A stretch of DNA of 64,000 nt from Patescibacteria group bacterium (GTDB lineage: Bacteria > Patescibacteriota > Minisyncoccia > Phycocordibacterales > PALSA-1337): contig JBBTRB010000004.1 of the NCBI GenBank assembly GCA_038065395.1, positions 70,042 to 134,041 of the forward strand, read 5' to 3'. The notes under the pieces are model-generated. The model saw only the letters and a program-made list of their open reading frames with translations. It was not told where the DNA came from and did no database searches. Below, one piece after another: positions 1,912 through 56,813 of the stretch. A program made the position numbers and the translations under genes. Position 1 is the first letter of the stretch; every line of letters starts with the position of its first letter.

Positions 1912-1988
1912 AATTCAGCTATTCAACTATTGGACAATTAAAAGATTACACAAAAAAGCCTCGACATCCGATCGGGACTTTTTTGTTT

Positions 1989-2029
1989 TTATTGTTTCTT
2001 GAGACTAAATTCATACGGATTTTATCTCG
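1989..2029 (+). promoter_or_regulatory. Conserved ~42-bp upstream motif, copy A (ttattgtttcttgagactaaattcatacggattttatctcg); putative promoter of the mazF-like gene
   Basis: Near-identical copies occur at 19746, 23779 and 55497 (+) and at 4593, 16162 and 50345 (-). Each is oriented toward the downstream gene, 20-60 nt before its start. A possible -35 TTGAGA, 17-nt spacer, TTATCT arrangement is present. Confidence 0.55.
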
Positions 2030-2047
2030 GGCTGTTACTGTGGGTAC

Positions 2048-2437
2048 ATGAAGAAAGATTACTCCAAATGGAGTGTGCAGAAAGAGGGTATTAATTCGAT
2101 CGAAACCCGGCCGTTATTTCAGCAACGAGATATATGGTTTTGTGCAATTGGTTGCAATATTGGCTATGAAGAAGATGGTGCTGGTGATGATTTCATACGT
2201 CCAATTGTGGTTGTGTGCAAAATTAATTCGAATATGTGCTGGGTAGTGCCTCTTACAAGAACGAGTAAAGCCAATCAATTCTACTTCAAACTATCGGTAT
2301 TTTCTGAAGGATTCTCAATGGCTATACTATCACAATTACGAATTGTGGATGCAAAAAGACTTTCTCGGAAGATTGGATTTGTACCACAGGACGTTTTTCT
2401 TGAAATGCAAGAAAGGCTCAAAAGATTTCTCTCTTGA
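2048..2437 (+). CDS. MazF/PemK-family endoribonuclease toxin-like protein with no adjacent antitoxin
   Basis: RDIWFCAIG...GDDFIRPIVVV...CWVVPLTRTS...LSQLRIVDAKRLSRKIGFVPQDVFLEMQERL aligns block by block with Kid/PemK (RGEIWLV...GTRPVLIV...LPVVVPVTS...RTIDMKARGGKRLERVPETIMNEVLGRL). Confidence 0.6.
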   Translation: MKKDYSKWSVQKEGINSIETRPLFQQRDIWFCAIGCNIGYEEDGAGDDFIRPIVVVCKINSNMCWVVPLTRTSKANQFYFKLSVFSEGFSMAILSQLRIVDAKRLSRKIGFVPQDVFLEMQERLKRFLS

Positions 2438-4352: not shown

Positions 4353-4375
4353 TGAACTTTATAGAGAAAAGCTAA

Positions 4376-4405
4376 ACAAAAAACCGCGATAAGCGGATTT
4401 TTTGA
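4376..4405. terminator. Bidirectional rho-independent terminator (aaaaaaccgcgataagcggattttttg)
   Basis: GC hairpin ccgcg-ataa-gcgg flanked by an A-run and a T-run. It sits downstream of dnaG (+) and of the minus-strand tRNA-like RNA. Confidence 0.7.
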
Positions 4406-4479
4406 AACATACCCTCGGCAGGACCTCCTTCGACAAGATTAATACAATGGTATTCTTGTTGAAATAAAAAGTCAAGTGA

Positions 4480-4550
4480 TGGTGGAGGTGAGGGGAATCG
4501 AACCCCTATGTTTATCTTGTCGAAGGATAACATCCGGCCTTGGCACCCCC
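4480..4550 (-). ncRNA. tRNA-like small RNA, copy 1 (71 nt)
   Basis: 7-bp acceptor stem GGGGGUG/CACCUCC. T-arm AGGGG-UUCGAUU-CCCCU. Discriminator A and encoded CCA. The body is 67 nt before the discriminator, about 5 nt too short for a cloverleaf. It is preceded by a conserved leader hairpin and by motif copy E. Confidence 0.6.
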
Positions 4551-4592
4551 ACGCGGGAAGATATCTATCCTCCGCAGGGTAACCATATCAGG

Positions 4593-4634
4593 TCGAGATG
4601 AAGAAACGATGAATTTAGGTTAAATTCTTGATAA
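4593..4634 (-). promoter_or_regulatory. Conserved upstream motif, copy E (transcription orientation: ttatcaagaatttaacctaaattcatcgtttcttcatctcgacc)
   Basis: Shares the core TTT(A/T)AC/GAGAC-TAAATTCAT-CGTTTCTT-CATCTC with the other copies. It sits about 45 nt upstream of the tRNA-like RNA 5' end. Confidence 0.55.
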
Positions 4635-4668
4635 AAAACAAAAAAACACACGTATCGAGCCATACCCC

Positions 4669-4698
4669 TTGCATATCTTGACCCCTTCGTTGTATAAT
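4669..4698 (+). promoter_or_regulatory. Sigma70-type promoter of rpoD (TTGCAT, 18-nt spacer, TATAAT)
   Basis: A canonical -35/-10 pair lies 29 nt upstream of the rpoD ATG. Classical sigma70 promoters therefore exist alongside the distinct 42-bp motif. Confidence 0.6.
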
Positions 4699-4726
4699 CG
4701 TCAGAACAACTTAGCTTTCTTTTCTC

Positions 4727-5941
4727 ATGGCAAAATCAAAAAAGACGACCAAATCAAAGCCGGCACGTGCTCGCAAGCCTGTGGCAAAATCCGCATCCAA
4801 GCCCAAGAAAAAGACAAAAGGCGTCTCGTCTCGCAAAGCTGCACCCAAGGTCAAAGCCGACCAGAAGAGTTTCGAATACAAGGCGACCAAACTCATCCAA
4901 AAGGGGCGTGATCGTGGTTTCGTCACGTATGACGAGATCCTCAAAGAGTTCCCACAGATCGAGAATGACATCGTCTTCCTCGATGAGCTCTATTCCAAAC
5001 TTTCTACTGCCAACGTCGACGTCCTCGAAGGGGGGGGCCTCCTCGAAGTCGAAGACCTGACCGTCAAGAAACCTTCGGCATATGGAACACGCCACAGTGC
5101 TGACTCTGCCTACGACTCTATCCAGATGTATCTCAAAGAGATCGGTCAATATCCGCTCATTACCGCCGCCAATGAAAAGGAGCTCGCTCGTCGTATCCAA
5201 GCAGGGGATCTCGAAGCCAAGAACCTCCTTGCAAAGGCCAACCTGCGTCTCGTGGTGTCTATCGCCAAGAAATACGTCGGTCGTAGTCCGGATCTGACAC
5301 TCCTCGACCTGATCCAAGAAGGTAACTTGGGACTTTTCCGTGCGGTAGACAAGTTCGACTGGACCAAAGGCTACAAGTTCTCGACTTATGCTACCTGGTG
5401 GATCCGTCAGGCCATCACCCGCGCATTGGCTGACCAGTCTCGCACTATCCGTGTACCGGTACACATGGTAGAGACCATCGCAAAATACAAACAGATGGTA
5501 CGACGTCTCACCCAAGACCTCGGTCGCGAGCCTTTGCCCGACGAGATCGCTACTGAGATGGGTATGGATGTTAGCAAGATCTACCAGATCGAAAAGATCG
5601 AGCAAGACGTCGTGTCGCTCGAAAGTCCTGTTGGAGACGACAGTGAAGATGGCAAGTCCACTCTCCAAGATTTCGTGGCAGATGACAAGATCCTTTCCCC
5701 TGATCAGGAGTCATCACATCGTATCCTCCGCGACCACGTCAACACGATCCTCGACGATCTCTCAGAGAAAGAACGCAAGATCCTCGAGATGCGTCATGGT
5801 CTCAATGACGGTATCACACATACCCTGGAAGAAGTCGGTCGTGAATTTGGAGTCACTCGCGAACGTATCCGTCAGATCGAAGCCAAGGCTCATGAAAAGA
5901 TCCGTCAGCACGACAATATCGATAGGCTCAAGAACTACTAA
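4727..5941 (+). CDS. rpoD: RNA polymerase sigma factor RpoD (sigma-70)
   Basis: Region 2 ([40 protein letters not shown]), region 3 and region 4 ([22 protein letters not shown]). Lys-rich N-terminus. Confidence 0.95.
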
Positions 5942-10202: not shown

Positions 10203-10285
10203 GTGGATAATGAGATGTTATGGCCTTAGTAAATGTCGACGTAGTGAGGTATTATTGTATCAGTAAATATACATATTTGCCTACC

Positions 10286-11869
10286 ATGAGTTTTTCGCTC
10301 ATATTCCACAATATTCTCTTTTTGTTGGGTGCACTGATCAGTATCGGCACCGCTTTCTTCGTCTTCTTTTCTACACAGCGCAGTCGTAGTGTTACCACGC
10401 TGACGTTCGCCTTGTCGTGCGTGGCGGTGTCCATATTCCAAGTATCACACCTTCTTGGTATCAACGCATCAGACGCCGAGACGTCTCGCATGCTCCTGAT
10501 GTTCAATCTCGCAGACATATTCATTGGTATGTTTATGACTCACTGGTTCCTCGGGTTTATAGGTAAGATCCATCAGCAACGATACGCACTCTATGCGGTA
10601 TATGCGAGTGGTCTCTCGATCTTCACGTTTTTCATGTTCTATCCTCGGATGTTTCTGATCGAGTCAGTACCCAAGCTGTATCTGCCATTTTATTATGAAC
10701 CAGGACCACTCTATGTTCTGATGCTCGGATGGTTCATGGCAGTCTCGGTGTATCATTTTTACCAACTCATTCAGGCGTATCGTCTCGAGAAAGATTCAAT
10801 ACAAAAAAACAGATACAAATACGTACTTCTGGCGATGTCATATGCGTATGCGTTCGGAACTACAGCATTCATGCTTGTATTTGATCTCCCCCTCAACCCT
10901 GCATTGTCAGCGTTATTCGGACTCTACCCGCTTCTTATTGTGTACGCGATACTGCAGTTCGAAGTGTTTGATATCCGTATTTTTGCCAAGCGCGCCTTCG
11001 TCTATGGGGTGACTATCATGATGGTGGGAGCAGCGATCACACTTACCGATTTCTTGAGTGCGTATTTCGTGACGATTCAACCAGCCGTCCCTCGAAGCTT
11101 CATTCCGATCATAGCCTCTGTGCTGTTCGGCAGTGCAGGTCTCTATGTCTGGCGCAAGACTCAAGATGCAGATTTGGCAAAATACGAGTTTATTACCATC
11201 GTGACGCACAAGTTCCGTACGCCGCTCACACGTATCAAATGGGCAACAGAAGAGATGGTTCGCACATTGCCTGATGACAAAAAAGAGATGTCGAGCATCG
11301 TAGAACAGTCGACCAGTCAGCTCTTCGAACTGACCAATATCCTGGTCAGACTTTCTGATTCTGATGCCAATACTCTCGATCAGACACGCATATCGAGCAG
11401 CGTGTCGGACCTCCTCCAGCAGCTCCAGTCAGAATATGCATCGCCGATGTTGCAGAAGCAGTTGAATTTCAATGTAAAGTATCCGGAGGGTGTGGCTTAT
11501 GCACTGATCAACCAGCAGCAGGTTCGTCTAGTCTTACAGATCTTGCTCGACAATGCGATCAGTTATTCTCCTAAGAATGGAACGATCACTCTCTCAGCCC
11601 AAGTAGTACGTGAAGATATGCAATGTATCCTCTCTGTTCAAGATCAGGGTATCGGTATCTCAAAATCAACAGCAAGACATATTTTCAACCGTTTCTATCG
11701 TGGAGATCGTGCACGTCTGGCTGATACCGAAGGTATGGGTATTGGTCTCTATATGGCACGAAAACTGATCGCAAGACAAGAAGGCAAGATCTGGGTCAAA
11801 TCTCCCGGAGAAGATCTCGGCAGTACCTTTTATGTTTCTATACCTCTCGACGGTTCAAAATATGTCTAA
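10286..11869 (+). CDS. Sensor histidine kinase with N-terminal multi-TM (7TM-like) sensor, paralog 1
   Basis: H-box HKFRTPLTRIKWATEEM. HATPase_c N/G boxes (LLDNAISYSP...DQGIGIS...GMGIGLYMARKL). Six to seven N-terminal TM helices. No adjacent response regulator. The start is placed at ATG 10286. Confidence 0.8.
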   Translation: MSFSLIFHNILFLLGALISIGTAFFVFFSTQRSRSVTTLTFALSCVAVSIFQVSHLLGINASDAETSRMLLMFNLADIFIGMFMTHWFLGFIGKIHQQRYALYAVYASGLSIFTFFMFYPRMFLIESVPKLYLPFYYEPGPLYVLMLGWFMAVSVYHFYQLIQAYRLEKDSIQKNRYKYVLLAMSYAYAFGTTAFMLVFDLPLNPALSALFGLYPLLIVYAILQFEVFDIRIFAKRAFVYGVTIMMVGAAITLTDFLSAYFVTIQPAVPRSFIPIIASVLFGSAGLYVWRKTQDADLAKYEFITIVTHKFRTPLTRIKWATEEMVRTLPDDKKEMSSIVEQSTSQLFELTNILVRLSDSDANTLDQTRISSSVSDLLQQLQSEYASPMLQKQLNFNVKYPEGVAYALINQQQVRLVLQILLDNAISYSPKNGTITLSAQVVREDMQCILSVQDQGIGISKSTARHIFNRFYRGDRARLADTEGMGIGLYMARKLIARQEGKIWVKSPGEDLGSTFYVSIPLDGSKYV

Positions 11870-12441
11870 AAAGGTAATGTATACGTCATCACACTCTCAA
11901 CAGGAACTTCCCATTCGGAGGTGTTGAGCTTGATCTCTTTGAGATTGCCGGCGTCTTTGTATTTGAGATGTTTGTTGGCGAATGCGTAGTCATAGAGTTC
12001 TCTGGTGAGCTTCACATCTTCCTTGCAGTAACGAATGATCTTGTCGATCTCGCCGTTGTTCCACCACTCGATAGCCTCGAGTCCGTGGCCAGATTTGTTC
12101 TTGCCGAGTGTTGCCTCGGCGACTGAGTCGAGCTTGAGACGTCGTCCGAGCGAGAGTTGTACTTCGCGCATCAGGTCGAGACTTTTGATCTTGGAGAGAT
12201 CGCCTGAGTAGTATTTGTTGAGGAGGGGGATGTCAAAATGGTCACCGTTCCAGGTGATGAGCATGTCTGCTTGCTCGATGATCGGCCAGAGGTTCTTGAG
12301 GTCTTCTTGGAGGAAGCTCGCCAGGGTGTCTGTCTCGCTATCGTGTATACAGACTACTGATATATCGAGTGCAGTCGGGTCGTTGGAGCCTACATCAGAG
12401 AATAGATTCCTTGTTTCAATGTCAAACGTAATTTTTCGCAT
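11866..12441 (-). CDS. DEDDy-type 3'-5' exonuclease (RNase H-like, PolB-exonuclease-related/YprB-like)
   Basis: Exo I FDIET, Exo II WNGDHFDIPLL and Exo III YCKEDVKLTRELYDY motifs. Confidence 0.6.
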   Translation of the reverse strand: MRKITFDIETRNLFSDVGSNDPTALDISVVCIHDSETDTLASFLQEDLKNLWPIIEQADMLITWNGDHFDIPLLNKYYSGDLSKIKSLDLMREVQLSLGRRLKLDSVAEATLGKNKSGHGLEAIEWWNNGEIDKIIRYCKEDVKLTRELYDYAFANKHLKYKDAGNLKEIKLNTSEWEVPVESVMTYTLPF

Positions 12442-14914: not shown

Positions 14915-14940
14915 CAGATCCCCGTCTTCACGGGGATGAC
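14915..14940. repeat. REP-like GC hairpin (gatccccgtcttcacggggatgac), member of a dispersed family
   Basis: Stem ATCCCCG/CGGGGAT. Related copies lie at 45856-45879 and form the termini of the 53179-53364 element. It sits right after the truB stop. Confidence 0.55.
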
Positions 14941-15939: not shown

Positions 15940-15947
15940 GGGTTAAA

Positions 15948-15977
15948 CAAAAAACCGCCAATGTGGCGGTTTTTTTG
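15948..15977. terminator. Bidirectional rho-independent terminator (aaaaaaccgccaatgtggcggttttttt)
   Basis: Stem ccgcca/tggcgg flanked by A and T runs. It lies downstream of the 14965-15939 gene and of tRNA-like RNA copy 2. Confidence 0.75.
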
Positions 15978-16046
15978 TTGGGACTTACCTTTTAGAATCC
16001 TCCCTCAGCAATGCAATAAGTGTATTCTAAAGTTAGTAAGAAGTCA

Positions 16047-16116
16047 AGGTGGAGGTGAGGGGAATCGAACTCCCTAAGTCCTTCTTGCTGAGGGAAGACT
16101 TCCTCCAAGGCACCCC
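16047..16116 (-). ncRNA. tRNA-like small RNA, copy 2 (70 nt; CC encoded, terminal A not encoded)
   Basis: Acceptor GGGGGUG/CACCUCC. T-arm AGGGAG-UUCGAUU-CCCCU, with one mismatch. Conserved leader with hairpin GGAAAGUGAAAACUUUCC. Preceded by motif copy F. Confidence 0.5.
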
Positions 16117-16161
16117 CACGCAGGAAAGTTTTCACTTTCCGCAAAGTAACCATAACAGGGT

Positions 16162-19567: not shown

Positions 19568-19745
19568 GCATTAAGTGTGGTTGAGTGTTTTTGTTTGTTT
19601 TTTGAAAAACTGCAAGCTGAACACCAGTCCGTTTCCGGATCCATATTCTGAAGAACAGCCGGCGAAAATCATATCATACTTTTGGAGAAAAGCAACAGGG
19701 TTGGGGAGAACGTGGGGATAGATGCCAGGACAGACTCTGACAGAT

Positions 19746-19787
19746 TTTATCGTTTCTTGAGACTAAATTCATACGGATTTTATCTCG
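19746..19787 (+). promoter_or_regulatory. Conserved upstream motif, copy B (tttatcgtttcttgagactaaattcatacggattttatctcg), upstream of pilB
   Basis: 41/42 identical to copy C and 39/42 identical to copy A. Confidence 0.55.
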
Positions 19788-19805
19788 CTCCTTTATCATA
19801 GCTCC

Positions 19806-20906
19806 ATGGATCATACTGTACTCAATTCACTTTCGGTCATAGAGCTTGTTGATGCACTCCTTCTGCATGCAGTGGGAGTCGGTGCATCAGACATACATTG
19901 CGACCCATGTGAGACGGGTATCTCGGTGCGCATGCGAGTCGATGGTATCGTCGAACATATAGGTGTGTTGTCGCGAGTATCACGTGAGGCGTTCATCGCG
20001 CGGCTCAAGATCCTTTCGGGAGCACGTACTGACATCCATCTCATACCACAAGATGGTAGATGGGCCGCGAACCTCGGTGCGCCGTATACTGTCCGCATTT
20101 CTTTTATGCCGACGTACCATGGAGAGAATGCCGTGATGCGACTCTTGCCCGTGCATACAGTCAGAGATATATCTCTACTCAAACTCGGATTCACTTATAG
20201 TCATATACAGGCACTCTCTACGGCCATATCCAAGACCAGTGGTCTCATATTGGTGACGGGACCGACTGGATCTGGCAAGACGACCACGCTCCATGCATGT
20301 TTGGCACACAAGGCCTCCAGAGACATCTCGATGATCACTCTCGAAGACCCGATCGAGTATGAGATACCAGGGATCCGACAGGTACATGTCAGATACGACC
20401 AGGGTATGAACTTTGCCCAGGGGTTGCGAGCGGCGCTCCGACAGGATCCGGACGTGATCATGGTCGGAGAGATCCGTGATGCAGAGACTGCCCAGGTGGC
20501 TATTCATACGGCGCTGACAGGGCATCTGGTGTTGTCGACACTACATACTAACTCCGCGCTCGAGACTATCCCGCGTCTTGTTGATATGGGAGTAGATCCA
20601 TATCTTCTAGCGGCGACATTGGTAGCTGTTGTGGGGCAACGACTGGTACGTACGCTGTGTTCTGGGTGCAATGGAGAGTTGTGTGTGCAGTGTCGTCAGA
20701 CAGGGTATATGGGAAGGAGTGTGATCGCAGAAGTGTGCGTCATCGATGCCGAACTCAAGAAGCTCATCGCACGGAAGGCGTCTTCAACAGAATACATAGA
20801 GCACGCTTTGGTGCAGGATTTTTGTACCATGGCATATGATGCCGCCGAAAAGGTCGAATGGGGTATTACTACCGAACAAGAAGTTCGTCGCGTTCTCCAT
20901 ATATAA
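19806..20906 (+). CDS. pilB: Type IV pilus/T2SS assembly ATPase (GspE/PilB family, core-only)
   Basis: Walker A LVTGPTGSGKTTTL. Asp box. Walker B VGEIRD. His box LVLSTLHTNSA. Tetracysteine CSGCNGELCVQCRQTGY. Confidence 0.85.
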   Translation: MDHTVLNSLSVIELVDALLLHAVGVGASDIHCDPCETGISVRMRVDGIVEHIGVLSRVSREAFIARLKILSGARTDIHLIPQDGRWAANLGAPYTVRISFMPTYHGENAVMRLLPVHTVRDISLLKLGFTYSHIQALSTAISKTSGLILVTGPTGSGKTTTLHACLAHKASRDISMITLEDPIEYEIPGIRQVHVRYDQGMNFAQGLRAALRQDPDVIMVGEIRDAETAQVAIHTALTGHLVLSTLHTNSALETIPRLVDMGVDPYLLAATLVAVVGQRLVRTLCSGCNGELCVQCRQTGYMGRSVIAEVCVIDAELKKLIARKASSTEYIEHALVQDFCTMAYDAAEKVEWGITTEQEVRRVLHI

Positions 20907-20910
20907 CCTC

Positions 20911-21972
20911 ATGCCTCTACCCTTACCCTCATACAAACAGAAATGGAGTCGTCGTAAGGTGACCCTGTTGCTCGAAAAGATCGAACTCTATCTCTCTGCA
21001 GGACTGAGCCTCGACCGAGCGTGTGATGTTGTATCACAGGGGATAGCAAAGAAAGATGCTCTTCGTATCCAGTCGCTCCGCCAAGATATCGAAAGGGGCG
21101 TTTCGTTGTCTGTCAGTCTGACTGAACACATCGGCATATCGTCGACGACCGCCACACTCATCCGTCATGGTGAGATGTCGGGTCAGCTGCCCAGAGCCTT
21201 GAGAACTTCACGGATATTGATAGAAAAGTCCGACGACATCATCCAGACATGTATATCAGCTCTTGCATACCCGAGTCTGATCGGTCTCTGTACTGCAGGG
21301 ATTACTCTCGGCTTGTTACGTGGAGTGATGCCACAGATCATACCGATGCTCAACAATCTCCATGTCGAACTGCCACTGCTCACCAAGATCGTGATCGCCC
21401 TTTCCGAAGGGATAGTCTTGTATGGCGGGTATGTCGTCTTGATGTTCATGGTGTTCGCGGTTCTGGGCACATATCTCTATCGTCGATATCGAGGTGTTCG
21501 TAGCATATGTCACCGTGTACTGACCTCTCTACCTATTTCAGGGAAGATATTGAACTCCTATCACGTCTCGCTTTTCTTGCGTTCACTGGGGTCACTCGTG
21601 GACTCAGGGTTGTCTATCTCGTATGTGTATCCGCATGTTGCACGAGGAGTGTCACTCGTGCCGCTTCAAGACATGTTGTCGGCTCGAGGGGATGATATCG
21701 AAAGGGGTACAGCGCTCGGTACCATCCTCACACATAGCCGGATCGCAGACTATGTCCCACCACTAGTATCTGCAGGAGAGAAGTCAGGGACACTAGGTCC
21801 GTCACTTATCCGAGCCGCAGATATTCTCGATCGAGATATAGAACGCTCTCTGAAACGTATGACATCGCTCATCGAGCCGCTGATGATGGTCTGTATGGGA
21901 TGCGTGGTCGGGGCGATCGCTTTATCCATCATGTTGCCTATATATGATATATCCAAAGTCTTACAACACTAG
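20911..21972 (+). CDS. pilC: Type IV pilus/T2SS platform protein (GspF/PilC family)
   Basis: Two GspF repeats with three TM segments. The start is placed at ATG 20911, directly after the pilB stop. Confidence 0.8.
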   Translation: MPLPLPSYKQKWSRRKVTLLLEKIELYLSAGLSLDRACDVVSQGIAKKDALRIQSLRQDIERGVSLSVSLTEHIGISSTTATLIRHGEMSGQLPRALRTSRILIEKSDDIIQTCISALAYPSLIGLCTAGITLGLLRGVMPQIIPMLNNLHVELPLLTKIVIALSEGIVLYGGYVVLMFMVFAVLGTYLYRRYRGVRSICHRVLTSLPISGKILNSYHVSLFLRSLGSLVDSGLSISYVYPHVARGVSLVPLQDMLSARGDDIERGTALGTILTHSRIADYVPPLVSAGEKSGTLGPSLIRAADILDRDIERSLKRMTSLIEPLMMVCMGCVVGAIALSIMLPIYDISKVLQH

Positions 21973-23323
21973 AGGTATGATCCTGATCGATATCATGATC
22001 GCCCTTTCGGTAGGGGTGCTTTTCGTTGCGGTTCTTTTTGAATCCTCGAGTACGGCACGGAGCCTCTTCGTTTGGAGTCGTGATCGCAGTAGATTCATGG
22101 ATATATATGAAGCGCATGCAGATGAATTCGAAGGTATGGTTCCTTCGGAGGTACGTACGCTCTCTGTAGTACATGACGCTACTCCTGTCGATCTTGTGGC
22201 CAGGGCACGATGGTATGGCAATGACCGGATCGAAACTGAGGTGACCGTCGGTGGTACGGTGACATTTTCTGCAGTGCGGGCGTATCCGTTTGCTGAGAGG
22301 GATGAGTCAGTATATACACCGATATGCTCCGTTGATCTCTATCGTACAGGAGTCATCAGGGTTGTACCCATTCTTATCCCTGGAATATCCGGCGAACTCA
22401 CTGATATCGAGGTACGCAATACGACAGCCTATATATCAGTTGATTCTGCTCGGGTCTCTGATCCGGATTTTGTAGTCGTGGATATTGCCAGCTCCTCGGA
22501 TCCTCGTATCATCTCGTCTATCCATACTGGTCCCGGCATGAGCTCGTTCTCATTGGTCGGTAGACGTATCTTTGCAGTTACGCAGAGTACGGTGGCACAG
22601 GTGCAGATCCTCGGTCTCGATGATGCGCAAGGTCTGCATCTAGAACAGAGTTACGTCTTGGTACGTCCGAGCACGACGACTCCTCCGACGGTCGGTAGTG
22701 CGACATTTGTGGCAGATGGGATGATGTTCGTCGGTACCGAGAAATGGCAAGGAAATGAGTTTATCGTGCTCGACGTGTCTGACCCTCTCCGCATAGTTCC
22801 GAGAGGGATGTTGGAGATAGGTGGCAAAGTCACCGACATCATCTCGCATCACGGTACGGCATATGTCACGGATGCCGCCGCATACCAGATGATCGCTGTA
22901 GATGTTACGGACCCTAGTGATCCGGTAGTACAGAACTCCTTCGAGCCTCCCGGTTGGAGTAGGCAAGAAGGCAAGACGCTATCGTATTTCGAAGAAGGAC
23001 TGACTCTCGGGCGTACCTCTGGCGGGTTCGACATCAGGTCGGAACATGAGCTGTTCTCCTGGGCTTCGACGTCGCCCCCGTCAGGTATATCTTCTTGGAA
23101 TATGCCCGGTGGAGCATATGGGATAGTGACAGATCGTATGCATACGTTCGTTGCAAGTCGGCAGAGAGATGCGGAGCTCCAGGTATTCGGACGAGACATG
23201 TCGACTGGTCCGATAGCGACATACCCCCTACCCGCATTGGCTCGAGGGCTCGTCTGTGACGGAGACCGTATGTATATGGTAGACAGCTCAACACCCACTC
23301 TGTATGAAATATCATTCAACTAA
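21944..23323 (+). CDS. Large pseudopilin-like protein: prepilin-type N-terminus fused to an LVIVD-repeat beta-propeller
   Basis: Leader MIYPKSYNTRG, then MILIDIMIALSVGVLFVAV (class III signal-like, Asp at +5). Repeated v.DvSdP..P..v units (VVDIASSSDPRII, IVLDVSDPLRIVP, IAVDVTDPSDPVV), i.e. LVIVD repeats. It overlaps the pilC 3' end by 29 nt. Confidence 0.55.
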   Translation: MIYPKSYNTRGMILIDIMIALSVGVLFVAVLFESSSTARSLFVWSRDRSRFMDIYEAHADEFEGMVPSEVRTLSVVHDATPVDLVARARWYGNDRIETEVTVGGTVTFSAVRAYPFAERDESVYTPICSVDLYRTGVIRVVPILIPGISGELTDIEVRNTTAYISVDSARVSDPDFVVVDIASSSDPRIISSIHTGPGMSSFSLVGRRIFAVTQSTVAQVQILGLDDAQGLHLEQSYVLVRPSTTTPPTVGSATFVADGMMFVGTEKWQGNEFIVLDVSDPLRIVPRGMLEIGGKVTDIISHHGTAYVTDAAAYQMIAVDVTDPSDPVVQNSFEPPGWSRQEGKTLSYFEEGLTLGRTSGGFDIRSEHELFSWASTSPPSGISSWNMPGGAYGIVTDRMHTFVASRQRDAELQVFGRDMSTGPIATYPLPALARGLVCDGDRMYMVDSSTPTLYEISFN

Positions 23324-23480
23324 TCACACTCAGTCACAGGGGATGACGTTGATAGAGATCGTCATATACACGTCTCTATTATCGCTCCTCGTGGCCAGTC
23401 ATATTGCCTATACCTATGAGATACAGCTCCATAATATCAACCTATCCCATGAGATCACTGATGCCGAGAACAACCAGTAA
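23304..23480 (+). CDS. Small type IV pilin-like protein (58 aa; below the ORF-track cutoff)
   Basis: Translation MKYHSTNHTQSQG|MTLIEIVIYTSLLSLLVASHIAY... shows the classical prepilin signature: G at -1, Met at +1, Glu at +5 and a hydrophobic helix. It overlaps its neighbours by 20 nt on each side. Confidence 0.5.
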   Translation: MKYHSTNHTQSQGMTLIEIVIYTSLLSLLVASHIAYTYEIQLHNINLSHEITDAENNQ

Positions 23481-23748
23481 AGGCTTCATCGCATTGATAG
23501 CGGTGTGTATGCTTGTCACGGGAACATTGGCAGGGACAGTCGCGATCCTGGTCAGAGCCGATGCCTATGCAGACACAGTCAGGCGACGCGAGATGAGGAT
23601 ACAGAGGAGGCTCGATGTCCATGCATGTCTCGATACGGTCAATCTCATGATCACTCGAGATGTGTTTTTGCGGGGAGCTGTATATATTCGAGATTTTGAT
23701 TGTAGGGTATACGTGGATAGTGATGGTCGTGTGACAGTGATCGAGTAG
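23461..23748 (+). CDS. Pilin-like (minor pilin/pseudopilin) protein
   Basis: MPRTTSKG|FIALIAVCMLVTGTLAGTVAIL is a prepilin-like leader plus hydrophobic helix, with no Glu at +5. The ATG lies inside the 3' end of the preceding small pilin gene. Confidence 0.45.
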   Translation: MPRTTSKGFIALIAVCMLVTGTLAGTVAILVRADAYADTVRRREMRIQRRLDVHACLDTVNLMITRDVFLRGAVYIRDFDCRVYVDSDGRVTVIE

Positions 23749-23778
23749 CAGACTCCCCCTAGGGTAGACCTAGGAAAA

Positions 23779-23821
23779 TTTTATCGTTTCTTGAGACTAA
23801 ATTCATACGGATTTTATCTCG
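23779..23821 (+). promoter_or_regulatory. Conserved upstream motif, copy C, upstream of the major pilin gene
   Basis: tttatcgtttcttgagactaaattcatacggattttatctcg. Confidence 0.55.
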
Positions 23822-23861
23822 TGGTGTTACGGTAGATGTATTACTCATAAACAATACACAT

Positions 23862-24332
23862 ATGTATATACATCAACACAAGAAACAAGGTTTCACCCTT
23901 ATCGAAGTACTCGTAGTCATCGGCATCATCGCACTCTTATCAGCGGTCGTCATCGTTGCAGTCAACCCCGCTCGTCAATTCAAACTAGCTCGAGATTCGC
24001 AGAGAACCAGTAACGTCAATTCGATCGTCAACGCACTTCACCAAAACATGGCAGAGCATCGAGGGTCTCTGGTATGTGCCGGAGTCACTCGGACTATACC
24101 GCTCGTTGCTACCGTGATCAGGAGTGGTGCTGCAGGATATGAGGGCGACATTGCCTCATGCATAGTACCCGACTATATCGGTGCAGTACCATTCGATCCG
24201 GTTATTATGGGAGCACATTTTACAGATAGTACAGACTATATGACAGGCTACGAGATATTCCGTGACGCTCAGGGTAGGATCACTGCAAGCTCAACCGGGG
24301 AGCTTGTTCAGACGATATCGGTGACAAAGTAA
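23862..24332 (+). CDS. pilA: Type IV major pilin (PilA/ComGC-like)
   Basis: MYIHQHKKQG|FTLIEVLVVIGIIALLSAVVIVAV is a canonical class III signal (G-1, F+1, E+5). Confidence 0.75.
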   Translation: MYIHQHKKQGFTLIEVLVVIGIIALLSAVVIVAVNPARQFKLARDSQRTSNVNSIVNALHQNMAEHRGSLVCAGVTRTIPLVATVIRSGAAGYEGDIASCIVPDYIGAVPFDPVIMGAHFTDSTDYMTGYEIFRDAQGRITASSTGELVQTISVTK

Positions 24333-26959: not shown

Positions 26960-28534
26960 TTACGCAGTGATTATCGGTAATGAGAATGAGAAGGTGCTAC
27001 CGGTGCCGAGTCCCGCGGACTCCACCCATATCTTGCCTTTGTGATGCTCGATGATCTCCTTGGACATGAAAAGTCCGATACCCATACCCTCAGTGTCGGT
27101 GACTTTGGCTTTGGTGCCGCGATAGAATTTGGAGAAAAGAAGAGGGACTTCTTCTGCAGGGATGCCAATGCCTGAATCAGTGACAGAACAGACGATATGA
27201 CCAGCTTCTTTTTTCAAGGAAATACGTACTGTTCCACCTGAGGCTGTGTAGTTGATAGCATTCTCTACGAGTGTCTGGATAACAAAGCGGATACGGTGCT
27301 CATCGAACACGCTGGTGATGTTCGGTTCGATGTTCTTGCTAAGCGTAATATGTTTGGCGATGGATTCTTGGATGAGTGACTGTGCAAGTGTCTCGGCGAT
27401 CTCAGATATGGAATTCGTCTTGAGCCTATAGTCCTCAGTTCCTTTTTCTTCCTCGGATACATTAACAAGCAAGTTGGTAAGCTCTACCAGTTTGCTGTTG
27501 GCGTTCTGAATATACTCGACTTGGGTTTTGTCTTCTGCGGGTAGATTTCGATTGGAGAGATTCTCCGAAGCCCATTTGATATGAGTGAGCGGTGTACGGA
27601 ATTTGTGAGTGACGGTCGTGATGAACTCGTATTTGAGGATGTCGGTTTTGCGGAGATTCCTCCAGGCGAGTACTCCGATCGTTACAACGAGTACTGATGA
27701 TATGAGCGCGATGATCCATCCAGGGAAGTTGGGTATGAGCAATCGGATCCATTGTTGTGACGAGTTCAGCAAGATGATGAATCCGCCAACTCCGACGATC
27801 GCGAGACTGTAGAAGAATGCTTGTTTTGCGATAACTTTGATATCGAAGAGCTCATAGCGGATAGCTCCATAGGTGAATACGGTCGCGAAGACCATTGAGA
27901 ACGCCATGCCCCAGAGAGGGTCGATAGCGATATCATATACCAAGAAGTTCGGAATAAAGCCGATCGCATAGCCGATGAGCATGGTCAAAAAGAGATATGT
28001 GTAACGCTTACTGTCGATCGGAGTCGAAGCGGTCTTACGGGCACCGTAAAGAATATAGAGACAATACGGAACGACGAGGCCGTAGAGAAATATGATGCGT
28101 GAAATATTGAGTATTCCTGGCTCATAGTAGTTGGGGAAATACATTTTCGGAACAGAATCAATCAAGAAAAGCTGAGGGAAGAATGAGAAAAATATCACTG
28201 CACCTGAGGCGATTGCGTAGCTTGTATATATCAACCATTTTTTCTTGTCGGCGAGTCCGCAGAATGCCAGTACTGAATGGAGGTTGAATGCGGCAATGAA
28301 GAACAGAGATACATTGAAGGTCAGTACGATCCGGGATATGGCTGGATTGTCTATGTTGACTCCGATGACATGAGATATGGTGAATACGGTGATCGCAAGC
28401 ATCATCAGACTCCACGCAACATTGGCTGTCTTGTGTCTGCCGTTGAGGAAGGTGAAGAACGCCATAGCGAACAGGGTGATGGTCGATATGATGCAAACGA
28501 TATTATGGATGATGAGATGAAGAGAAGAGTTCAT
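26960..28534 (-). CDS. Sensor histidine kinase with N-terminal multi-TM sensor, paralog 2
   Basis: H-box HKFRTPLTHIKWASENL and HATPase_c motifs. The architecture and TM region are similar to the kinase at 10286-11869. No adjacent response regulator. Confidence 0.8.
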   Translation of the reverse strand: MNSSLHLIIHNIVCIISTITLFAMAFFTFLNGRHKTANVAWSLMMLAITVFTISHVIGVNIDNPAISRIVLTFNVSLFFIAAFNLHSVLAFCGLADKKKWLIYTSYAIASGAVIFFSFFPQLFLIDSVPKMYFPNYYEPGILNISRIIFLYGLVVPYCLYILYGARKTASTPIDSKRYTYLFLTMLIGYAIGFIPNFLVYDIAIDPLWGMAFSMVFATVFTYGAIRYELFDIKVIAKQAFFYSLAIVGVGGFIILLNSSQQWIRLLIPNFPGWIIALISSVLVVTIGVLAWRNLRKTDILKYEFITTVTHKFRTPLTHIKWASENLSNRNLPAEDKTQVEYIQNANSKLVELTNLLVNVSEEEKGTEDYRLKTNSISEIAETLAQSLIQESIAKHITLSKNIEPNITSVFDEHRIRFVIQTLVENAINYTASGGTVRISLKKEAGHIVCSVTDSGIGIPAEEVPLLFSKFYRGTKAKVTDTEGMGIGLFMSKEIIEHHKGKIWVESAGLGTGSTFSFSLPIITA

Positions 28535-33707: not shown

Positions 33708-33766
33708 AGATATTGGACTTATGGTAGGCCTAGGTCTACCCTAGGCTTACATGTTATAGTCAGCAG

Positions 33767-36542: not shown

Positions 36543-36938
36543 TTATTGACTGATTGTGCGTGTGGCGCGTTGCGGAGCGAATTCATACCACGTCTCCTGC
36601 GGAGAAGGAGATGTCTCGGTCTTACGATGTCCTCGTAGTGGTGTGTACGGAGGAATCAGTCCGTGTTCGATACCCGATCGAACCGCTAAGACTCGATTCA
36701 TGTAAGTCTGCCCAGTGAGTCTCTTAAGTTTACTGAATATATTGACGAGATGAGTGTTCGTTGTTCTGATGCTGATACCATGTCTACTTGCAATGTCTTT
36801 ATCACACAGTCCTTCTGAGAGTGACTCGAGAATTTCCGTTTCCCGAGGAGTCAACTGAGTAGTTGATGTTAATGCGAGGTTAATTTTTCCCGTTACGTTC
36901 ATAAGGTACAGATATCTAATCCCAAAAGCATTATACAT
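36543..36938 (-). CDS. LuxR/GerE-type helix-turn-helix transcriptional regulator (stand-alone)
   Basis: LTPRETEILESLSEGLCDKDIASRHGISIRTTNTHLVNIFSKL is a LuxR-type HTH. Confidence 0.6.
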   Translation of the reverse strand: MYNAFGIRYLYLMNVTGKINLALTSTTQLTPRETEILESLSEGLCDKDIASRHGISIRTTNTHLVNIFSKLKRLTGQTYMNRVLAVRSGIEHGLIPPYTPLRGHRKTETSPSPQETWYEFAPQRATRTISQ

Positions 36939-42460: not shown

Positions 42461-43417
42461 TTAGGAAGTAACAAGTACGTCCTTTGTCTTTTCTAAATAG
42501 GTTTGCAGATCATTTATTCCTTGTTCTTTTCCTGTTTTGCTCCAAAGGGTAAAAAGTATATGACTTTGAATAATTATCGCGGCTTGAAGGACTTTTCGGT
42601 TTAACGCTGTTGTGTCCTCAGAATAACCTCTAATAAGTTGCTCAGCAACCTCACCATCTATTCCGCGTCCTATTGCTTTGCAGATGGCACTTGCCAAGTC
42701 CATATAAGGGTGATTAAGAGTTGGAATAGGATCAAAAATTGTTATAGGGTCAGTATCAAAGACATTCTGGTAGGCAAAATCGTTATGGCAGTAGCTACTT
42801 TCTGAGGAATTTCCAACGTATTCCACAAGGATTTTAATAGCAAGCGGGAAATTGTCACTTGTTTCATCCAGGTCAGGTCTTTTCTTATCAATTGCATCCT
42901 GGAGCCAGTTTCTAAACTGAGTATAATTACCTTTTCCATTTTTTATAGAACCAAAACCTTCTGATTTGGCAGTATGCATTGTACGTAATGCCCTGCCCAT
43001 TTTTACAAACATTTCTTTCTGTAGAACCTCACCTTTTTTGTATGCTTCGTGAAGTGTCTTGGCATCTATGAAGTCCATGAGCAAGTAATGGCTCCCATCG
43101 ATAGTACCTTCTTCGATAACATGAGGTACGTTGACACCAACTTTTTCCCAGGCCTTCAGGAACATGCCCTCATATTCATAAAAAGATTTAGCACTAAGAG
43201 GAATTTTCAAGACCTTTTTTGTGTCACCGGTATCAAGGATGCAAGTGAGGGAAGCGACTCCAGCCGAAGGAAAAAACACGTGTACGTCCTTGTCTTTAAA
43301 TAATATATGTTGATTCAGAAATGTTTCTATATGAGGTAGAAGACTCATGCGGCGCTTATTTGAATCTGAATAGTGGTCAAGCTCGGAAACTTTGGGTTGA
43401 TTGAGAAAAGTAATCAT
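42461..43417 (-). CDS. Aminoglycoside phosphotransferase/choline kinase-family protein kinase-like enzyme
   Basis: Brenner motif HNDFAYQNVFD (HxDxxxxN) and a downstream D-x-[DE] region. APH-like length. Confidence 0.6.
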   Translation of the reverse strand: MITFLNQPKVSELDHYSDSNKRRMSLLPHIETFLNQHILFKDKDVHVFFPSAGVASLTCILDTGDTKKVLKIPLSAKSFYEYEGMFLKAWEKVGVNVPHVIEEGTIDGSHYLLMDFIDAKTLHEAYKKGEVLQKEMFVKMGRALRTMHTAKSEGFGSIKNGKGNYTQFRNWLQDAIDKKRPDLDETSDNFPLAIKILVEYVGNSSESSYCHNDFAYQNVFDTDPITIFDPIPTLNHPYMDLASAICKAIGRGIDGEVAEQLIRGYSEDTTALNRKVLQAAIIIQSHILFTLWSKTGKEQGINDLQTYLEKTKDVLVTS

Positions 43418-45855: not shown

Positions 45856-45879
45856 GTCATCCCCGCTCAGGCGGGGATC
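45856..45879. repeat. REP-like GC hairpin (gtcatccccgctcaggcggggatc)
   Basis: Same family as 14915-14940 and the termini of the element at 53179-53364. Confidence 0.55.
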
Positions 45880-50106: not shown

Positions 50107-50234
50107 GAGTTTGTACCAGAAACACAAAATCCGCCGAAGCGGATCTTGTAGAAATTTATTGTTCGATACCTCGCAACCTCTCCTCATCAGTGCTAACAAG
50201 TATACTCTTTCTAGATAGCAAGTCAAATTCAAAC

Positions 50235-50305
50235 TGGTGGACCGAACGGGAATCGAACCCGTACGCCTCAGCTGATGAGGAGAGGCTGGCACCATGCCTC
50301 GGCCC
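50235..50305 (-). ncRNA. tRNA-like small RNA, copy 3 (71 nt, CCA encoded)
   Basis: Acceptor GGGCCGA/UCGGUCC, compensatory relative to copies 1 and 2. T-arm ACGGG-UUCGAUU-CCCGU. Leader hairpin GCGGAAGAC-ucu-GUCUUCCCGC. Preceded by motif copy G. Confidence 0.6.
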
Positions 50306-50344
50306 ACGCGGGAAGACAGAGTCTTCCGCACATACACCGTAACA

Positions 50345-53178: not shown

Positions 53179-53364
53179 GTCATCCCCGCGAAGGCGGGGA
53201 TCCAGGAGCAAGGGCGTGACAACTTAATTAGATCTACACAACCACCAAATACTGAAGACTTGGCTCTGTAAGTAAATGCCGAACTCCCCAAGTTTATTAT
53301 TTATATAACCTAAGTGAATTATATACTGGAAGTGATTCTGGATCCCCGCCTTCGCGGGGATGAC
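53179..53364. mobile_element. MITE-like element: 27-bp terminal inverted repeats (gtcatccccgcgaaggcggggatccag / ctggatccccgccttcgcggggatgac) flanking ~130 bp of AT-rich non-coding DNA
   Basis: 53179-53205 is the reverse complement of 53338-53364, with a single internal difference. Each TIR is itself a GC hairpin of the REP-like family. Confidence 0.5.
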
Positions 53365-55540: not shown

Positions 55541-55577
55541 GTAGAGAAAAAATCGCTTTTACGGTATCATTTTACCC

Positions 55578-56813
55578 ATGAAACAATCCCACCTATTCAC
55601 TCGTACTCGTCGTGAAGCGCCAAAAGACGAAGTGGCCAAGAATGCAGAGCTCTTGATCCGTGCAGGGTATATATCAAAAGACATGGCAGGAGTGTATTCT
55701 TTTTTGCCGTTGGGGGTACGGACTCTCAACAAGATCGTACAGATCATCCGTGAAGAGATGGATGCCATCGGCGGCCAAGAGATCCATCTGACATCACTCC
55801 AAGACAAGAAGACCTGGGAGACCACGGGGCGCTGGAGTGACGAAGTTGTCGACAACTGGTTCAAAACAAAACTCAAGAATGATACCGAGGTAGGTCTGGC
55901 CTTCACTCACGAAGAACCGTTGACGCTCCTCATGAAAGATCATATTCGTTCATTCCGTGACTTGCCTGCACTGCCGTACCAGTTCCAGACCAAGTTCCGC
56001 AACGAAGCACGCGCCAAGTCGGGTATCTTGCGTGGTCGTGAATTCTTGATGAAAGATCTCTATACATTCTCTCGTGACACTGCTCAACATGAAGGTCTCT
56101 ACGAACAAGCAAAACAAGCCTATCGACGTATCTTCGACCGACTCGGTATTGGAGGTGATACGTATGTGACATTCGCCAGTGGTGGGTCTTTCGCAAAATA
56201 CTCCCATGAATTTCAGACGGTCTGTGAAGCCGGTGAAGATATGATCTATGTCCATGAAGGCAAGAAGATCGCGGTGAACAAAGAAGTCTTGAATGATGAA
56301 GTGTTGGCTGATCTCGGGGTAAAGAGAGAAGAATTGGTAGAGAAAAAGGCCATAGAAGTCGGAAATATCTTCAGTCTCGGTACCAAGTTCTCCGATGCGT
56401 TCGAGCTCTCATACCAAGACGAAGATGGCACCTCCAAGTCAGTAGTGATGGGTAGTTATGGTATCGGTCCATCTCGTGTGATGGGAACGATCGCTGAGTT
56501 GTGGTCCGACGACAAGGGCCTCGTCTGGCCAGAAGCCGTGGCACCATTCAAAGTTCACCTCATCGCTCTCTACGACAAAGCCGGCAAGGTCAAACCAGTT
56601 GTCGAAGAGCTCTATACGCGTTTGACCAGTGCGGGTGTCGAGGTCTTATATGATGACCGTGAAGTCGGTGCAGGCGAAAAATTCAGCGACTCTGACCTCA
56701 TCGGTATTCCTCGAAGGATCATCGTCAGCGAAAAGACCCTAGCTACAGACTCTGCTGAGGTCAAAGACAGACAGACGGGGAAAGTGGAGATGATGAAGTT
56801 GGAAAAATTATAA
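55578..56813 (+). CDS. proS: Prolyl-tRNA synthetase (short form without the INS editing domain)
   Basis: Class II motifs (FRDLPALPYQFQTKFRNE, RGREFLMKDLYTF) and an anticodon-binding C-terminal domain. 411 aa. Confidence 0.9.
   Translation: MKQSHLFTRTRREAPKDEVAKNAELLIRAGYISKDMAGVYSFLPLGVRTLNKIVQIIREEMDAIGGQEIHLTSLQDKKTWETTGRWSDEVVDNWFKTKLKNDTEVGLAFTHEEPLTLLMKDHIRSFRDLPALPYQFQTKFRNEARAKSGILRGREFLMKDLYTFSRDTAQHEGLYEQAKQAYRRIFDRLGIGGDTYVTFASGGSFAKYSHEFQTVCEAGEDMIYVHEGKKIAVNKEVLNDEVLADLGVKREELVEKKAIEVGNIFSLGTKFSDAFELSYQDEDGTSKSVVMGSYGIGPSRVMGTIAELWSDDKGLVWPEAVAPFKVHLIALYDKAGKVKPVVEELYTRLTSAGVEVLYDDREVGAGEKFSDSDLIGIPRRIIVSEKTLATDSAEVKDRQTGKVEMMKLEKL

Follow-up and report, generated by a model that had tools for sequence, protein, structure and literature searches.

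What reads a 41-bp sequence that recurs in front of transcription units as different as a pilus operon, a toxin gene and short tRNA-like RNAs? The question is raised by a 64,000-nt stretch of DNA from a Patescibacteria group bacterium (contig JBBTRB010000004.1, positions 70,042 to 134,041), which we refer to as the window and which is part of a 249.6-kb contig from Hainich groundwater well H41 (ENA ERZ1292619). The closest homologues of its RpoD belong to Paceibacterota/Parcubacteria, its G+C content is 48%, and its gene content is that of an ordinary chromosome (rpoC, a PemK/MazF-like gene, dnaG, rpoD, murA, mreB, proS, and others), including a type IV pilus cluster with pilB, pilC, and a pilin gene. 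As judged from its anatomy and placement, the repeated sequence (the box) is most likely the upstream part of a particular class of promoters in one Paceibacteria-like clade of Patescibacteria and not a -35/-10 pair. We lean toward reading it as a helically phased direct-repeat operator, resembling the PHO box, for a predicted activator.

Copies of the box and their 11-bp periodicity

The box is present seven times in the window, in four plus-strand and three minus-strand copies. A profile hidden Markov model (HMM) built from the copies and run with nhmmer over the 64-kb window retrieved exactly the seven copies counted by the initial annotation, at 28.9 to 44.6 bits, with the next site at 4.4 bits; the refined coordinates lie within 0 to 4 nt of those first given. 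A skeleton of the 11 invariant bases, TTNA-N7-TTNAT-N6-TTNAT, matched only these seven boxes in the window (0.04 matches expected from shuffles), and the 13-mer TTTATCGTTTCTT with two mismatches or fewer had 11 window matches vs 1.9 expected. The copies are listed here with their target genes, those encoding proteins being named by Pfam.

1988-2028, plus strand: box copy 1 (protein-gene type), before the PemK/MazF-like gene at 2048; nhmmer, 40.8 bits
19746-19786, plus strand: box copy 2, before the pilB (T2SSE ATPase) operon, gene at 19806; nhmmer, 44.6 bits
23780-23820, plus strand: box copy 3, of the same sequence as copy 2, before the major pilin gene (N_methyl) at 23862-24332; nhmmer, 44.6 bits
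55499-55539, plus strand: box copy 4 (TTTAACC variant), before proS at 55578-56813; nhmmer, 37.8 bits
4635-4595, minus strand: box copy 5 (RNA-gene type, with a diverged first unit), before RNA1a; nhmmer, 28.9 bits
16202-16162, minus strand: box copy 6 (RNA-gene type), before RNA1b; nhmmer, 37.3 bits
50389-50349, minus strand: box copy 7 (RNA-gene type), before RNA1c; nhmmer, 34.1 bits

Each copy is associated with a promoter and oriented toward its neighbouring downstream gene, as originally described. The upstream flanks are unrelated between copies, which downstream have only a -10 hexamer in common. Copy 1, which lies directly 3' of the rpoC terminator hairpin, differs from copies 2 and 3 at a single base. 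The identity of 85 to 100% initially ascribed to all copies holds among the four preceding protein genes, whereas pairwise identity over all seven ranges from 61 to 100% (mean, 79%) and that among the RNA-gene copies from 73 to 85%. On a 5-kb contig of the same well (L039), rpsF (S6) and ssb are preceded by an eighth box, which has the sequence of copies 2 and 3. It was the sole true copy in a metagenome scan with a degenerate 27-mer, the other 60 of the 61 loci being AT-rich chance matches. An exact-pattern scan of the genome collection with ATYGTTTCTTNNNNCTAAATTYAT returned just 10 single matches, which we took as chance, and the box was not found in viral contigs.

Alignment of the copies resolved the box into four 11-bp direct-repeat units, the TT(Y)AT cores of which start at about -60, -49, -38, and -27 with respect to the predicted transcription start site (TSS); with this 11-bp spacing, the cores fall on one face of the helix. 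Unit by unit, the protein-gene form reads TTTATCGTTTC / TTGAGACTAAA / TTCATACGGAT / TTTATCTCGnn, and the RNA-gene form reads TTTATCGTTTC / TTGAGAC or TTTAACC-TAAA / TTCATCGTTTC / TTCATCTCGAC. Autocorrelation had its maximum at 11 bp in five sequence variants (shuffle p, 1e-4 to 1e-2), with no other period between 7 and 13 bp prominent. Sixteen copies, drawn from no fewer than five Paceibacteria-like genomes, made up a conservation set whose invariant positions were T12 T13 A15, T23 T24 A26 T27, and T34 T35 A37 T38, along with T1 and the A of the -10. The unit that reads TTGAGAC becomes TTTAACC in three copies and TTTATCG in one relative (L171), the 11-bp phasing being unchanged. A longer, 13-bp direct repeat, TT(T/C)ATCGTTTCTT, is confined to the RNA-gene copies and missing from the four protein-gene copies and most relatives; its spacing is 22 bp, not the approximately 24 bp first given for the internal repeat CGTTTCTT.

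Two other readings of the anatomy were set aside. An inverted repeat, GAGACTAAAT/ATTTTATCTC (8/10 match), occurs in the protein-gene copies only; neither the RNA-gene copies nor L082 retain it. With regard to DnaA boxes, the TTATC half alone matches and the CACA half is absent, which we did not count as a match.

A palindromic hairpin, CCTAGGGTAGACCTAGG, recurs at 23758-23774, at 33729-33745 (minus strand), and at approximately 1015-1033 of L039. Two of these hairpins stand immediately 5' of a box (those of the pilin gene and rpsF), and they may be terminators that insulate the box promoters.

Register to the -10 element and predicted leaderless starts

The position of the box relative to the core promoter is fixed. 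The last core ends at box position 38 to 40, and after the box and 7 further bp, a TAnnnT hexamer occupies positions 49 to 54 in 15 of the 16 copies, namely, in six of the seven window copies, in that of L039, and in all copies of the relatives. In 9 of the 16, a TG precedes the hexamer to make an extended -10 (TGnTAnnnT). Box position 61, 6 nt after the -10, is either the A of an ATG (the mazF-like gene, the window pilB, and pilB of L081, L082, L170, and L171) or the first G of the GCGGA that opens each RNA gene. Transcription thus most likely starts about 20 bp 3' of the box, which would span about -60 to -20. The predicted elements are as follows.

2033-2041, plus strand: extended -10 TGTTACTGT of box promoter 1 (hexamer TACTGT); predicted TSS at 2048, the A of a leaderless ATG
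19794-19799, plus strand: -10 TATCAT of box promoter 2; predicted TSS at 19806, the A of the pilB ATG
23825-23833, plus strand: extended -10 TGTTACGGT of box promoter 3; predicted TSS at ~23840, leaving a 22-nt leader to the pilin ATG
55565-55570, plus strand: usable -10 TATCAT of proS (copy 4), 25 bp instead of 7 bp from the box
4590-4582, minus strand: extended -10 TGATATGGT of box promoter 5; predicted TSS at 4575
16154-16149, minus strand: -10 TATGGT of box promoter 6; predicted TSS at 16142
50341-50336, minus strand: -10 TACGGT of box promoter 7; predicted TSS at 50329
2048-2437, plus strand: solitary PemK/MazF-like toxin gene (PF02452, E = 7e-11), with box 1 upstream, predicted leaderless

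The 22-nt pilin leader resembles in sequence that of the relatives' pilin promoters. The mazF-like gene has no adjoining antitoxin gene, and the annotation of the source contig calls nothing between rpoC and dnaG.

Starts of this kind extend beyond the box promoters. Among the 62 window genes of at least 90 aa, TAnnnT lies 5 to 9 nt before the start codon in 25, compared with 2 to 8 at shifted control positions, while motifs resembling a Shine-Dalgarno (SD) sequence are found in 6, which is the background level. None of the leaderless candidates has a good -35, and a sigma-70-type scan of 19600-24000 showed no clear -35 element. For these reasons, the organism appears to use mostly leaderless mRNAs transcribed from -10 or extended -10 promoters. 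Examples of such starts are the genes at 11866-12441 (minus strand), 14965, 39302, 42461-43417 (minus strand), 52046, and 59458. Gene callers have probably mis-set starts in this lineage. In L080, the called pilB start (3113) falls inside the predicted -10 hexamer, and a GTG 12 nt downstream suits the leaderless register.

Within this background, the box promoters stand apart by their -10 hexamers, which have on average 0.87 A/T bases at positions 3 to 5 vs 1.81 in the other leaderless promoters (p = 0.0003). Being richer in G/C, these hexamers are expected to be weaker, which fits dependence on an upstream activating element. Canonical sigma-70 promoters coexist in the same genome, so the box promoters form a distinct class. 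They include the three promoters of the RNA2 genes described below (TTGACT-16/17-TAnnnT) and that of rpoD, for which we confirmed the TTGCAT-18-TATAAT of the initial annotation; in the form CCTTGCAy-18-TATAAT, with a leader of ~28 nt, the latter is conserved across relatives. A true tRNA-Glu gene located 7.6 kb outside the window has a promoter without the box, which is therefore not a general trait of strong or stable-RNA promoters.

Conservation and candidate readers of the box

Relatives were compared by locus (L-numbers; L082 and L076 are one scaffold), and ~165 kb of their loci were scanned with the box skeleton, which matched at the following box promoters only.

L080 (PilB, 82% identity): box at the pilB and pilin promoters
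L081 (PilB, 80%): box at the pilB promoter
L082 (PilB, 68%): box at the pilB and pilin promoters
L076: box before an unrelated gene for a 121-aa protein, downstream of rpoC
L170 (PilB, 68%): box at the pilB and pilin promoters
L171 (PilB, 65%): box at the pilB promoter
L168 (ProS, 93%): in-register box driving a hicB-like/hicA operon ahead of proS
L169 (ProS, 82%): box and RNA module in the murA-mreB gap; no box was found upstream of proS

Orthologous pilB, pilin, and RNA promoters hold the array in the same register. The pilB promoter of L171, the most distant by PilB identity, retains little besides its phased TTYAT cores, an ATG in leaderless position, and the extended -10, a reduction that points to selection on the recognition pattern. 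Within a genome, moreover, the copies agree in details peculiar to the lineage, found in unit 1, at position 19, and in the tail of unit 2, as expected from coevolution with one reader protein, from gene conversion, or from both.

The initial annotation had offered two explanations, a promoter class read by an alternative sigma factor and an operator bound by a dedicated regulator, and it is the latter that the sequence evidence appears to favour. Three to four equivalent cores on one helical face that reach the -35 position, combined with a weak -10, correspond to the architecture of tandem direct-repeat activator sites. In the mechanism that we propose, one DNA-binding protein recognizing tandem direct repeats would fill the array as at least two head-to-tail dimers, touch RNA polymerase at the usual place of the -35, and switch the box promoters on together. 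The co-regulated set would then comprise type IV pilus genes, toxin genes, proS, the S6-SSB operon, and the tRNA-like RNAs. An economical guess for the binder would be a winged-helix response regulator of the OmpR/PhoB type, acting as PhoB and PhoP do on PHO boxes. The PhoB array overlies the -35 region up to ~10 bp before the -10, and PhoB contacts sigma region 4. The box compares well with this design, since a PHO box takes two or more direct repeats of ~11 bp and the box has four, and its array likewise lies over the -35 region and ends ~10 bp before the -10. Tandem direct repeats with an 11-bp unit are common to the box and to the PHO boxes of Escherichia coli PhoB and Bacillus/Streptomyces PhoP; in Streptomyces, PhoP binds 11-nt direct repeat units, two to six per promoter (PMC3479208). 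In other respects the two differ. TT(Y)AT is not among the known cores of PHO boxes; a set of pili, toxins, tRNA-like RNAs, S6, and proS is no phosphate regulon; our inspection of ~85 kb (window and flanks) of a genome of at least 760 kb yielded neither PhoB/PhoR nor an OmpR-type regulator; and the box promoters are predicted to drive leaderless mRNAs in an organism where most promoters have no -35 anyway. The likeness, as we see it, is one of mode of working and not of family membership.

Several observations weigh against an activator operator. A Trans_reg_C or LytTR domain occurs in none of the ~62 window genes or their flanks over the same ~85 kb, where the only regulatory proteins are histidine kinases (HisKA) and one GerE-type helix-turn-helix (HTH) protein. 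Three copies are identical and a fourth is one base off across all 41 bp, spacers included; identity over the whole box exceeds what transcription factor sites typically need and points, in addition, to copying or gene conversion in the recent past. Promoters lacking a -35 are the norm in this genome, so that the missing -35 is in itself no argument for an activator. That the binder activates rather than represses we infer solely from the weak -10 hexamers. Finally, the proS copy deviates from the register by 18 bp and is perhaps a remnant, since at that locus L168 has an in-register box before hicB-like/hicA.

The GerE/LuxR-type HTH protein (131 aa; 36543-36938, minus strand) is the lone stand-alone DNA-binding regulator in the window, and the two HisKA kinases (10220-11869 and 26960-28534) have no adjoining response regulator.

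Among the competing explanations, the one closest to the first proposal of the initial annotation does without a separate regulator. RNA polymerase would read the box directly, through an alternative sigma factor or an unusual UP-like or extended upstream element, with TTGAGA as the -35 and TATCTC/CATCTC as the -10 or, alternatively, with TTCAT paired with the downstream TAnnnT. Such direct recognition could draw on the high conservation of TTGAGA, which equals TTGACA at five of six positions, on the 17 bp between it and TTATCT, on the deviant -10 composition of the box promoters, which is expected with a different sigma, and on the fact that a regulator gene was not found near any copy. We nonetheless regard it as unlikely. 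The TTGAGA-17-TTATCT arrangement exists as a sequence, with the spacing first described, but finds no support as the -35/-10 pair of an alternative sigma factor. Whether placed behind TTGAGA or TTTAAC, both TTATCT and TCATCT lack an A at position 2, and the shifted frame TATCTC/CATCTC lacks a T at position 6; the sigma-70-type consensus scan of 19600-24000 called no site in either of the boxes located there. A start dictated from within the box would leave SD-less leaders of 12 to 14 nt, although the ATG sits 6 nt after a good TGnTAnnnT. Moreover, the TTGAGAC unit varies while the phasing stays, an array of three or four equivalent phased units looks like the site of a multimeric binder and not of a sigma factor, and TTCAT lies 20 bp from the -10. 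Nor does the box look like an UP element. In rRNA promoters, UP elements are A/T tracts at about -40 to -60, which have in common with the box that they form a conserved block upstream of the core promoter and that strong promoters are expected to carry it. We rejected this assignment because the box reaches -20, has phased TTnAT cores and conserved G/C positions, and is absent from the tRNA-Glu promoter.

The near identity of some copies invites a different account, in which a strong constitutive module was copied before unrelated genes by duplication or gene conversion, without regulon logic. Four copies that are 98 to 100% identical precede unrelated genes, the copies of a genome are closer to each other than to their orthologues (unit 1 and position 19 agree within lineages), and the box-carrying RNA module at dnaG-rpoD is an insertion absent from that locus in three relatives. 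Near-identical sequences before non-homologous genes are also the hallmark of reused or putatively mobile promoters, a phenomenon documented in prokaryotes (Nijveen, Matus-Garcia and van Passel; PMC3575422). Unlike in those cases, the conserved part here is the upstream element only, which is kept at orthologous loci and decays to the phased core. The copied unit ends sharply at 41 bp, with the -10 and flanks varying; terminal inverted repeats or other mobility hallmarks were not found; and the array persists at orthologous pilB, pilin, and RNA promoters despite PilB identities of 65 to 82%, which implies selection on the pattern. We also rejected a miniature inverted-repeat transposable element (MITE), a repetitive extragenic palindrome (REP)-like repeat, or the larger mobile sequence with conserved flanks that the initial annotation had considered: the flanks are unrelated, and the box stands at orthologous pilB, pilin, and murA-mreB sites. 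A propagated cassette without regulatory meaning therefore seems improbable to us. It would account for the spread of the box and not for its reader, and in that sense it is compatible with an activator operator. Least probable of all is a repressor operator, in which a direct-repeat binder would coat -60 to -20 and keep the promoters off until a signal arrives. The phased-repeat anatomy would suit it equally well, the proximal unit lies in the spacer beside the -10, where a bound protein could occlude RNA polymerase, and toxin genes are among the targets (mazF-like here, hicAB in L168). However, the -10 hexamers are weaker than elsewhere, whereas a promoter under repression is as a rule intrinsically strong, high expression would be expected of some of the targets (the major pilin gene and the S6-SSB operon), and the whole array lies upstream of the -10.

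A last candidate concerned the family of the binder. LytTR sites, as bound by AgrA, ComE, and AlgR, consist of two 9-bp direct repeats 12 to 13 bp apart, and AlgR controls pilus genes in Pseudomonas. The RNA-gene copies resemble them in carrying the 22-bp-spaced direct repeat upstream of the -10, but the universally conserved trait of the box is the 11-bp phasing. With that repeat in three RNA-gene copies only and no LytTR protein in the ~85 kb, this type of site was discarded.

RNA modules behind the box and wider implications

The minus-strand boxes are each predicted to start a transcript of ~96 nt (RNA1), which is immediately followed by a gene for a second small RNA (sRNA) of ~70 nt predicted length (RNA2), with its own canonical promoter and an intrinsic terminator at its end. 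The RNA modules are paralogous units of ~290 bp, and the RNA2 transcripts are predicted to begin near 4440, 16012, and 50192.

4479-4575, minus strand: RNA1a, made up of a 5' leader hairpin and, behind it, a tRNA-like body (G3:U70 acceptor, T arm, ACCA)
16049-16142, minus strand: RNA1b, paralogue of RNA1a
50235-50329, minus strand: RNA1c, paralogue with an L169 orthologue
4374-4475, minus strand: RNA2a unit, with promoter TTGACT-17-TACCAT, sRNA of ~67 nt, and intrinsic terminator
15945-16047, minus strand: RNA2b unit, with promoter TTGACT-17-TACACT, sRNA complementary to the RNA1b loop, and terminator
50124-50226, minus strand: RNA2c unit, with promoter TTGACT-16-TATACT, sRNA complementary to the RNA1c loop, and terminator

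RNA1 begins with the 5' leader hairpin and a GU, followed by the tRNA-like body, which combines an acceptor stem of 7 bp with a reduced D arm, a hairpin resembling an anticodon arm without the 7-nt loop, and a canonical T arm; it ends with an A discriminator and, in two of the three window copies, CCA, the count being two of four when L169 is included. When the three paralogues are aligned with the orthologue of L169, 97% of the cells in this structure are paired, and compensatory changes affect 14 of the 26 pairs. G3:U70, the alanine identity pair, is invariant in all four. The 5' ~14 nt of RNA2 are complementary to the anticodon-arm-like loop of the neighbouring RNA1, with a sequence that differs from module to module. 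In the L169 module (~4800-5006, minus strand), compensatory changes preserve the RNA1-RNA2 pairing, and among the window paralogues, the computed cognate duplexes are 5.9 to 20 kcal/mol more stable than the noncognate ones. No other target of the RNA2 seeds at 12/14 matches or better was found in the ~85 kb besides the cognate RNA1. The RNA1 loops are rich in CCUC/CCUU, like an anti-SD sequence, and GGAGG follows the sRNA seed. The module and box at dnaG-rpoD (region 4353-4726) constitute a ~290-bp insertion relative to L075, L076, and L077, present in the window genome only.

In the acceptor stem length, G3:U70, the A discriminator, and the canonical T arm, RNA1 is alike to tRNA-Ala and to the tRNA-like domain of transfer-messenger RNA (tmRNA); it is unlike them in its reduced D arm, in the lack of a 7-nt anticodon loop, and in the existence of three paralogues, each with a complementary sRNA. 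ARAGORN at default settings called no gene for RNA1, and Rfam at gathering thresholds gave no match to it. Sub-threshold Rfam scores were 22.3 for tRNA (threshold, 29) and 19.7 to 22.8 for tmRNA (threshold, 47), and tmRNA_permuted, too, matched below its threshold. On the basis of these scores, the ARAGORN result, and the lack of a reading frame conserved in RNA2 (by eye), we rejected a canonical tRNA or tmRNA. A two-piece or permuted tmRNA made of RNA1 and RNA2, prompted by the 22.8-bit match, was likewise rejected, as the acceptor stem forms in cis with covariation, the trans pairing with GGAGG shows none in copy c, and no tag frame is conserved. An RNA1 covariance model found no further copies in 241 kb, its extra weak matches falling on true tRNA-His and tRNA-Glu genes, and a loose RNA1 leader pattern had 85 matches in viral contigs, all without a T arm.

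An RNA2-like sRNA gene also stands alone in L082 (6905-7170, minus strand), directly after bipA/typA and with no adjoining RNA1. Its promoter is of the form TGTTATAAT and its seed reads UUGUCGAAGGAGG; the gene also carries the conserved motif AAAGGUAAGU and a terminator.

Another repeated motif is the hairpin ATCCCCG-N6-CGGGGAT(GAC), with four copies in the window vs 0.14 expected.

14918-14937: ATCCCCG hairpin
45859-45878: ATCCCCG hairpin
53182-53201: ATCCCCG hairpin
53342-53361: ATCCCCG hairpin

In three cases, the hairpin closely precedes the -10 or ATG of a gene, these genes having their starts at 14965, 45850 (minus strand), and 53388. The hairpins at 53182 and 53342 are oppositely oriented and flank ~140 bp that are 84% identical to positions 2608-2707 of L039. 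We see two possibilities for this hairpin, an operator or a MITE-like element of small size.

How transcription is regulated in this phylum is essentially uncharted, and our literature search found nothing on promoters, transcriptional regulation, or leaderless transcription in Patescibacteria, nor on the tRNA-like/sRNA modules. The box is probably new as a phased direct-repeat upstream operator, a kind of operator that is itself already known. It would provide a concrete cis-regulatory code, in which an 11-base skeleton ties pilus genes to toxins, translation genes, and tRNA-like RNAs. In Patescibacteria, type IV pili play a central part in attachment and in the uptake of DNA. The model predicts exact start sites, a regulon that can be listed from complete genomes, and a bait for the regulator. 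For annotation, it bears on a lineage that appears largely leaderless and SD-poor, where the mazF-like open reading frame went uncalled on the source contig and the pilB start of L080 was probably misplaced. A further step, which we advance only tentatively, is a lineage-specific regulon of Paceibacteria-like CPR bacteria, in which one direct-repeat-binding factor would co-regulate type IV pili, toxins, and the RNA modules. These modules appear to be undescribed and are a more novel lead than the box. The RNA pairs could amount to a regulatory or decoy system of a new RNA-RNA type, e.g., a tRNA-mimic sponge or a toxin decoy; if so, such pairs would operate in organisms that translate mostly leaderless mRNAs.

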